The position numbers and the translations under genes are program-made. Below the pieces are notes generated by a model. It was not told where the DNA came from. It searched no databases and worked only from the letters and a program-made list of their open reading frames with translations. A stretch of 10,056 nt of DNA from an uncultured Bdellovibrionales bacterium (GTDB lineage Bacteria > Bdellovibrionota_C > UBA2361 > JBGSMV01), in contig CAZPBV010000032.1 of the NCBI GenBank assembly GCA_964584675.1, forward strand, positions 5,480 through 15,535, read 5' to 3'. Position 1 is the first letter of the stretch, and each line of letters begins with the position of its first letter. Below are positions 8,022 to 8,769 of this stretch, piece after piece.

Positions 8022-8381
8022 ATGAAGAATATTTTCGCGTCCATAGTCCTTGCGATCGGTCTCTTCGCTCTATTGGACAACGTGGCGAGGGCCGATTTTG
8101 TTCAACCCCATACCATTGTACCAAAAGAAAGACGGTCGATTATCGGTCCAGCCCTTGATCCTCTTACCGAAGGCCAAGACGGGAGTCCATCTTGTGTCGA
8201 TCTCCCCCATGGGCACTGTTTTTGTGATATGGGAGCCAGTAATTGTGAATTTCAGTGCGGCTGCGCGCAGATGGGGGGATCGGGCTGTCCGCCTCTGAAC
8301 GAACAAACAGATTGTCACCCTGACATCCCGGTGGTGGATGAGCATTTTTGGCGAATACTTGAAATAGTAATTTCGAGATAA
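8022..8381 (+). CDS. Small secreted cysteine-rich protein (8 Cys), paralog A; unrecognised family
   Basis: ATG 8022 is 5 nt after AAGG (8013-8016). The N-terminal Sec signal peptide is MKNIFASIVLAIGLFALLDNVARA, with an AXA site and mature protein starting at D. A ~35-aa low-complexity linker follows. The Cys core is SCVDLPHGHCFCDMGASNCEFQCGCAQMGGSGCPPLNEQTDCHPD. The cysteine spacing is shared with the adjacent gene. Confidence 0.6.
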   Translation: MKNIFASIVLAIGLFALLDNVARADFVQPHTIVPKERRSIIGPALDPLTEGQDGSPSCVDLPHGHCFCDMGASNCEFQCGCAQMGGSGCPPLNEQTDCHPDIPVVDEHFWRILEIVISR

Positions 8382-8403
8382 CGGTAATATCTGGGAGAAG
8401 TTT

Positions 8404-8769
8404 ATGAGAAAGATAATAAATTTTCCGGCGTGCATTCTATTGGTTGCTATGTGCGTGTTGGGTCAGACTGCTCACGCGGACCTTATTGATATCGTAGATT
8501 TGGTAGGGCTTGCGGGGCAGTCGCTGGTCGATCCTATCAGCGGAGCTGTGGGCATTGGGGCAGGAATTCTTATCGATGAGCTCAACGATGGAGAGTGTCA
8601 AAATGTTCGCAGTGTTGGCGGGACTCTTCGTTGTCGATGTGACACCGGGTCGCAAAACTGTACCTATAATTGTAACTGCCTGGAAGTTCTCGCGGGCAGT
8701 TGCGACAGTGAGCCCGACTGTGAGCAAGATCATCCTCTCCTCAATGAGCAGTTCTTGAGAGCTCGCTAA
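8404..8769 (+). CDS. Small secreted cysteine-rich protein (8 Cys), paralog B; unrecognised family
   Basis: ATG 8404 is 6 nt after GGAG (8394-8397). The signal peptide MRKIINFPACILLVAMCVLGQTAHA is followed by D. The Cys core is ECQNVRSVGGTLRCRCDTGSQNCTYNCNCLEVLAGSCDSEPDCEQDHP. The conserved block CxCDxGxxNCxxxCxC and the trailing …P(L/P)LNEQ… / …DC..(D)HP… motifs match paralog A. Confidence 0.6.
   Translation: MRKIINFPACILLVAMCVLGQTAHADLIDIVDLVGLAGQSLVDPISGAVGIGAGILIDELNDGECQNVRSVGGTLRCRCDTGSQNCTYNCNCLEVLAGSCDSEPDCEQDHPLLNEQFLRAR

Follow-up and report, generated by a model that had tools for sequence, protein, structure and literature searches.

A tandem pair of eight-cysteine mini-protein genes with predicted signal peptides, and one further relative, form a very rare sequence family

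The stretch of DNA analyzed here (hereafter, the window) makes up the whole of a 10,056-bp metagenome scaffold (ENA ERZ28615168, MUNK22-1_SAMEA7428533_METAG-scaffold_3253), which comes from an uncultured bacterium and carries two adjacent genes for small cysteine-rich proteins. The first of these, mini1 (8022-8381, plus strand, 119 aa), encodes a signal peptide, a Cys-free N-terminal segment, an eight-Cys core and a C-terminal amphipathic tail; the second, mini2 (8404-8769, plus strand, 121 aa), has a similar architecture. Both open reading frames (ORFs) were found where the original prediction, made from the letters of the DNA alone, had placed them. A 963-bp Logan contig (ERR4682891), assembled separately from the reads of the same sample, is identical to the window across 8209-9171. 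In both genes the start is the first possible start codon following the upstream stop, with the stop-to-stop frames opening 5 (mini1) and 11 (mini2) codons earlier. A Shine-Dalgarno-like purine-rich element (AAGG) lies 9 nt before the ATG of mini1, and the 22-nt spacer separating the two genes (8382-8403, plus strand) contains a Shine-Dalgarno-like GGGAGAAG (GGGAG) ahead of the mini2 ATG. A terminator scan of this spacer returned no site and, given the operon-like layout, co-transcription of mini1 and mini2 is therefore likely.

Long ORFs also run along the opposite strand (8070-8435 and 8437-8733), and it had been allowed that the first of them might prove to be the real gene. The two antisense ORFs are mutually dissimilar (E 5.8), and the G+C content at their first, second and third codon positions (GC1/2/3 of 0.43/0.42/0.60) is unlike that of neighboring genes. 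In the plus-strand frames the corresponding values are 0.59/0.43/0.47 and 0.60/0.42/0.50, comparable to those of most housekeeping genes of the contig (~0.6/0.42/0.5), and the overall G+C content of the pair (0.50) is like that of the rest of the contig. The coding strand of the pair is the plus strand.

The two genes are true paralogues. BLASTP aligns mini1 and mini2 with an E-value of 4e-10 and 26% identity across 117 columns, in agreement with the paralogy proposed beforehand. Word-indexed searches with each protein against 5.8 billion 90%-identity clusters returned the queries themselves and nothing else, whereas an exhaustive profile search with HMMER through 1.84 billion representatives at 50% identity retrieved one more protein, P0003 (131 aa, library-wide E 3.7e-4), with a signal ending in ADA|S, eight mature Cys and the core elements CFCDMG, NCSFNCAC and DCHPDKPFLNEE. 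Smith-Waterman scores for the mature parts are 99 (mini1-mini2), 145 (mini1-P0003) and 76 (mini2-P0003). None of 3000 composition-preserving shuffles reached the observed scores, nor did any of 3000 shuffles in which the Cys were fixed and the other residues permuted; because the latter never reach the score, the similarity among the three proteins exceeds what their shared Cys content provides. Identity over the core is 48% between mini1 and P0003 and 34-36% between mini1 and mini2, and since P0003 is nearer to mini1 than mini2 is, the duplication that gave rise to the pair is old.

Further searching did not enlarge this set. A profile built from the three cores recovered the same three proteins and no fourth, and no relatives were found in GTDB representative genomes, viral contigs, plasmids or phages. 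A single match in a JGI metagenome (L004) was discarded as spurious: its frame has a GC3 of 0.51 on a 64%-GC contig, the opposite strand holds a 184-aa ORF with a GC3 of 0.79, and only CxC and DCHPD are shared with the family. Among ~15 billion public proteins, the pair has by these comparisons one further relative only. All three proteins fit a common description, consisting of an AxA signal followed by C-x(7-11)-C-x-C-D-x-G-x(3-9)-N-C-x-[FY]-x-C-x-C-x(7-12)-C-x(4-7)-D-C-x2-D-x-P-x2-[DN]-E. On the basis of sequence, mini1, mini2 and P0003 are a real, previously unclassified and extremely rare family, which falls within an established broad class, that of exported disulfide-rich mini-proteins; nothing suggests a new kind of mechanism.

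Both proteins of the pair begin with a predicted Sec signal peptide ending in AxA before Asp, as initially described. In mini1 this is MKNIFASIVLAIGLFALLDNVARA (8022-8093, plus strand), with cleavage expected at ARA|D, and in mini2 it is MRKIINFPACILLVAMCVLGQTAHA (8404-8478, plus strand), with cleavage expected at AHA|D; signal peptides were assigned throughout by rule, from n-, h- and c-regions and the AxA motif. The N-terminus of mini1 comprises MK, 15 hydrophobic residues and ARA|D (best 12-residue hydropathy window 2.80), and that of mini2 comprises MRK, a hydrophobic core and AHA|D, with small residues at positions -3 and -1 of both predicted cleavage sites. All three family members share an n-region with positive charge, AxA and a hydrophobic stretch whose best 12-residue hydropathy window scores 2.6-2.9. 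No lipobox was detected in any of the three N-termini and no twin-arginine motif in those of mini1 and mini2, and beyond the signal no stretch of transmembrane strength is present in the three proteins (highest 19-residue hydropathy 0.4-1.4). The predicted mature proteins are 95 aa (mini1) and 96 aa (mini2) long and contain exactly eight Cys each, an even number that is strictly conserved in mature mini1, mini2 and P0003. They are also markedly acidic, with mature isoelectric points of 4.0-4.6 overall (mini1 4.6, mini2 4.05, P0003 4.3) and net charges at pH 7 of -8.9, -11.2 and -9.3, respectively.

The eight-Cys core spans C58-C98 in mini1 (8193-8315, plus strand), with the spacing C-x7-C-x-C-x6-C-x3-C-x-C-x7-C-x8-C, and C65-C106 in mini2 (8596-8721, plus strand), with the spacing C-x11-C-x-C-x6-C-x3-C-x-C-x7-C-x5-C. 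The Cys framework originally proposed is accurate for everything past the first gap, which had been given as x8/12 and is in fact x7/11. Seven of the eight Cys are directly matched in the alignment of mini1 and mini2, the first being shifted by three columns, and Cys make up ~19% of the core. The core can be read as two successive CxC-x(6-7)-C units (CFCDMGASNC and CGCAQMGGSGC in mini1, CRCDTGSQNC and CNCLEVLAGSC in mini2), joined by a three-residue x-[FY]-x linker and flanked on each side by one Cys. When considered as two CxC-x(6-12)-C units, the cores (8217-8291 and 8632-8703) give a hint of ancient internal duplication, in units that are too short for statistics.

Downstream of the core, the motif D-C-x2-D-x-P-x2-[DN]-E is conserved and is followed by a short amphipathic tail. 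PLNEQ, a motif first suggested for the pair, occupies positions in mini1 and mini2 that do not correspond. In mini1, PPLNEQ precedes the last Cys (8289-8306, residues 90-95) and resembles the post-Cys P-[LF]-L-N-E-[QE] of mini2 and P0003; in the post-Cys position mini1 itself has PVVDEH (8328-8348, residues 103-109), and the two may represent a small internal repeat or a coincidence. On the other side of the core, the Cys-free segment that follows the signal is 33-39 residues long and has S, E and G positions that are invariant in the three proteins. No conserved processing site is found in it across the three members, KERR occurring in one protein only. The description of this segment as a pro-like, low-complexity linker is consequently not supported: with conserved residues and no conserved processing site, a pro-region is an assumption, and the segment may instead be part of the mature protein.

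Searches with mini1 and mini2 against Pfam, NCBIfam, PHROGs and PADLOC returned nothing credible (the strongest results being VGLL4, with E 0.07-0.1, and a functionally unassigned PHROG, with E 0.011), nor did PDB sequences yield a credible match, consistent with the initial impression that the framework matches no known family. The best PDB sequence-profile match, to a millipede hydroxynitrile lyase (E ~0.01-0.04 over ~35 residues), was rejected as a chance result, as it aligns two of the eight Cys and falls inside a much larger (162-aa), unrelated enzyme; a profile match to hirustasin (E 2.4) was set aside as noise.

Several known systems share parts of this layout. Bacterial cis-defensins are cysteine-stabilized alpha-beta peptides described in Myxococcota and other bacteria, comprising five classes and defined by the regular expression C-X(2,18)-C-X3-C-X(2,12)-C-X(4,17)-C-X-C (PMC11561630). 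In the cysteine-stabilized alpha-beta fold, two disulfides fasten a helix to a beta-sheet. They are like the pair in size (<130 aa), in having a Sec signal peptide and in possessing a disulfide-rich core with one CxxxC and one CxC, and they often have an unstructured N-terminal tail ahead of the core, comparable to that of the pair. Nevertheless, the regular expression is not matched by mature mini1, mini2 or P0003 (0/3). The order of elements is reversed in the pair, where CxC comes ahead of CxxxC and the second CxC overlaps it, and the defining cis-defensin pattern therefore fails. The pair differs further in having eight Cys in another arrangement (cis-defensins have six or 6+2), in being strongly anionic and in showing no sequence similarity. 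With regard to the remaining traits of cis-defensins, a secretion signal without a transmembrane segment is present according to the rule-based assignment, but the mature charge (-9 to -11) is the opposite of the cationic charge that is typical of such antimicrobial peptides (PMC8877149). The likeness to defensin and toxin precursors noted at the outset hence stands for the architecture, but not for the Cys pattern or for the charge of the mature proteins.

A bacterial precedent for this layout, which had first been taken as eukaryote-like, is provided by the heat-stable enterotoxin STa. The E. coli STa pre-pro-peptide consists of a 19-aa signal, a pro-region and an 18/19-aa mature toxin with three DsbA-made disulfides. 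It shares with the pair the succession of signal, Cys-free segment and C-terminal disulfide-rich part, together with (in the pair, predicted) Sec export and periplasmic oxidation. In the pair the core is larger by a factor of two to three, four disulfides are expected, the C-terminal tail is conserved, and the Cys-free segment has conserved positions and no conserved cleavage site. The Pfam heat-stable enterotoxin families do not match the pair, and the likeness is architectural only. Laminin-type EGF modules have eight Cys in ~50 residues, and EGF-like modules show a local likeness to the family in the [FY]-x-C-x-C of mini1, mini2 and P0003. When compared with the PROSITE EGF_1, EGF_2 and laminin-EGF patterns, the P0003 stretch CACAGGYGVPYSPPDC satisfies EGF_2, whereas mini1 and mini2 fail all three; the pair has only three residues between the Cys that would flank the major EGF hairpin, and no Pfam EGF-type family matches the cores at E <= 10. 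Metallothioneins, including those of the SmtA/BmtA type, resemble the pair in their CxC clusters split by small residues and in their high Cys density, but the pair differs from them in its export signal, its conserved aromatics (F/Y/W in or near the core) and its lack of CxxC or CC elements, and no Pfam metallothionein family (the bacterial SmtA type included) matches it.

Taken together, these features suggest a model in which mini1 and mini2, as lineage-specific accessory genes, would be transcribed together and both products exported through Sec, with signal peptidase I cutting after AxA to release mini-proteins of ~95 residues. Outside the cytoplasm, the eight Cys would form four disulfides, locking a compact acidic core of ~42 residues, with an extension on its N-terminal side and an amphipathic helix on its C-terminal side. 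The mature proteins would then bind a target stoichiometrically in the periplasm or outside the cell, with the diverged paralogues acting together as a heteromer or addressing two targets or specificities. A stoichiometric binder is the most likely role because the small size and polarity of the proteins argue against an enzyme and their acidity against a cationic peptide acting on membranes, and our best single guess is an inhibitor or immunity-type binder, or else a secreted antagonistic factor. We infer export, cleavage, disulfide formation, co-transcription and binding alike, and consider the model as a whole somewhat more probable than not; our confidence in any particular target is much lower. 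The roles named in the original prediction (secreted effector, bacteriocin, signaling or metal-binding peptide) are guesses between which the present results do not distinguish.

Several points weigh against this interpretation. With three sequences (n=3), conservation statistics are thin, and binding is a default assignment derived from size, charge and disulfide content. AlphaFold2, run on three-sequence alignments, produced models with a predicted local distance difference test (pLDDT) score of 38 for the mature protein and 51 for the core. A scan for sigma-70-like promoters in the 505-bp gap upstream of mini1 returned no site. Lastly, the contig ends 104 bp past the transposase gene that follows the pair, and partner genes may lie further right. 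In the low-confidence core model (pLDDT 51), a beta-hairpin spans the first three Cys, CxxxC lies in a helical turn and the C-terminus is helical, and a Foldseek search of the AlphaFold2 models (pLDDT 38 and 51) against the PDB gave no match at E < 1.

Among the alternatives to an exported, disulfide-locked binder, the one that fares best, though we still deem it unlikely, is that the two genes encode metal-binding periplasmic or secreted proteins, with either metallothionein-like thiolate clusters, in which the Cys would be at least partly reduced, or Ca2+ sites made up of conserved Asp, Asn and Glu. In their spacing, CxC and CxxxC with small residues (CFCDMGASNCEFQCGC) are reminiscent of the CxC clusters of metallothioneins, most of the invariant residues other than Cys are D, N or E in proteins that are very acidic, and one or more His stand beside the last Cys (DCHPD, DCEQDHP). 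Export to an oxidizing compartment, on the other hand, favors disulfides, and the core has conserved aromatics (F/Y two positions before the second CxC), which are atypical for metallothioneins. Searches at E <= 10 revealed no Pfam metallothionein or other metal-binding family, no metal-responsive riboswitch was found upstream of the pair and the window contains no gene for a metal transporter or regulator.

Somewhat less probable is a Sec-dependent antimicrobial pair, that is, a bacteriocin or defensin-like toxin made as a pre-pro-peptide that releases a knot of ~45-60 aa. The tandem arrangement of diverged paralogues, their narrow distribution and their accessory location are all in keeping with antagonism genes, and the closest relatives of the neighboring tgt and queA genes include a metagenome-assembled genome (MAG) labelled as Bdellovibrionales. 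The layout is also like those of the STa pre-pro-peptide and of bacterial cis-defensin precursors (PMC11561630). Yet the cis-defensin pattern from that same study is unmet in all three proteins, net charges of -9 to -11 depart from the cationic nature typical of such peptides (PMC8877149), no conserved pro-peptide cleavage site is present, and no immunity, ABC-transporter or processing gene is adjacent. About as doubtful, in our view, is a more ambitious proposal, in which two tandem CxC-x(6-12)-C units (a strand-borne CxC, then a helix-borne CxxxC) would make up a new bacterial disulfide-rich fold, possibly a permuted cysteine-stabilized alpha/beta motif, and an uncultured bacterium, perhaps related to Bdellovibrionota, would secrete the acidic pair to act against other cells as a two-component toxin or inhibitor. 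The permuted motif is only a lead.

We assign a slightly lower probability still to a special case of the binder model, in which mini1 and mini2 are orphan periplasmic immunity or inhibitor proteins directed against an incoming or self-made hydrolase or toxin acting in the periplasm. The proteins are small, predicted to be exported, acidic, tandemly duplicated and diverged, located in an accessory position and devoid of enzyme-like features, and they parallel the tandem arrays of signal-peptide-bearing immunity genes seen in other bacteria. No effector is adjacent, however, as the pair is preceded by 505 bp of non-coding sequence and a PEMT-family methyltransferase gene and followed by a transposase gene; neither PADLOC nor Pfam provides a match, and four disulfides are not the usual basis of known immunity families, which we count against this explanation.

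The idea that the pair encodes precursors of ribosomally synthesized and post-translationally modified peptides, with enzymatically cross-linked Cys, we regard as very improbable. It draws on the Cys-rich C-terminal core behind a Cys-free N-terminal part and on the adjacency of two precursors, but the N-termini are Sec-type signals with AxA and not leader peptides, the proteins are long (~95 aa mature), and no gene for a radical-SAM enzyme, lanthionine synthetase, YcaO protein, peptidase or transporter occurs within 8 kb upstream or 1.3 kb downstream. Hardly credible, finally, is that mini1 and mini2 are chance ORFs or that the long opposite-strand ORFs are the real genes, since, even though codon log-likelihoods are weak for all candidates (-0.02 to 0.06), protein-level similarity is confined to the plus frames and extends to a third homologue elsewhere, a GC1>GC3>GC2 phasing like that of housekeeping genes is seen in the plus frames only, and the signal-peptide architecture is common to all three members.

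Uncultured bacteria commonly encode orphan small secreted proteins, and the pair illustrates that paralogy by itself can validate orphan families that curated databases miss. Should mini1 and mini2 indeed be exported and adopt a knot with four disulfides, the bacterial disulfide-rich mini-proteins, of which few are known, would gain a new and very rare scaffold. Scaffolds of this kind are of interest to peptide engineers and for the origin of eukaryotic Cys-rich effectors, although with three sequences and an uncultured host their practical value is limited for now.

On its downstream side the pair faces, in convergent orientation, a Y1/HUH transposase gene (8960-9952, minus strand, 330 aa) resembling those of REP-associated tyrosine transposases (RAYTs; REP, repetitive extragenic palindromic), with HFHML and YLYTNP motifs in its translation. 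It matches Pfam Y1_Tnp with 30.7 bits (cutoff 23), while its NCBIfam REP_Tyr_transpos score of 44.6 bits falls under the cutoff of 80. The protein is unusually long, its Y1 domain (residues ~20-140) being followed by a ~190-aa C-terminal extension without a family match. A REP-like hairpin, GTAGG-CGG-CCTAC (8786-8803), begins 16 nt past the mini2 stop codon, and an inverted copy lies at 10020-10037. The two make up an inverted repeat of 18 nt without mismatch, each arm of which contains the hairpin; no other copy occurs in the window, where 0.16 would be expected by chance. After the right copy, CCTACAAAATAAGT is exactly duplicated in tandem at the scaffold end (10029-10056). The convergent transposase and the adjoining palindrome thus lie where the original prediction had them, but its suggestion that the pair is transposase cargo is unsupported: the hairpins bracket the transposase gene alone, leaving the pair outside, to the left of both. 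Carriage of passenger genes is not known for RAYTs, and the proximity of pair and transposase may reflect a permissive intergenic region. Across the 10-kb contig, no modification enzyme, transporter or effector gene was found next to the pair.

Upstream, the window contains a housekeeping block with coaBC, a hypothetical gene, NfeD, Band7, queA, an AAA_14/DUF4143 ATPase gene, tgt and the PEMT-family methyltransferase gene. Among GTDB representative genomes, the nearest tgt genes are those of a MAG labelled simply as 'bacterium' (L005, 65%) and of the Bdellovibrionales-labelled MAG (L006, 63%), the next standing at 59%. L005 retains the coaBC-NfeD-Band7-queA-tgt block, which is followed there by genes for a DsbD_N-domain protein, MgtC and a CNNM/CorC transporter, and its locus has no ATPase, mini-protein or RAYT gene. 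The absence of the pair from its closest syntenic relative places it at a synteny break, which agrees with the earlier proposal of an accessory locus. The gene overlapping the end of tgt also differs, encoding the DsbD_N-domain protein in L005 (7086-7535, plus strand) and a PEMT/ICMT-family membrane methyltransferase in the window (7058-7516, plus strand), and the break therefore begins directly after tgt and not at the pair.

The 505-bp gap ahead of mini1 (7517-8021) contains no convincing ORF and no Rfam match to a riboswitch or other RNA. On its minus strand there is a terminator-like hairpin at ~7851-7875 (stem CAGAGCC/GGCTCTG, 11-nt loop, T6 run), with an ordinary folding energy (z = -1.2). 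Further upstream, a 158-aa ORF between coaBC and NfeD (907-1383, plus strand) has no Pfam match; L005 has a 160-aa ORF at the equivalent position, with no tblastn similarity at E 1e-3. The AAA_14/DUF4143 ATPase gene (4743-5915, plus strand) lies between queA and tgt, which are adjacent in both L005 and L006, and appears to have been inserted as a single gene into a conserved operon-like block; its product matches the PADLOC candidate defense family PDC-S01 (E 2e-60).

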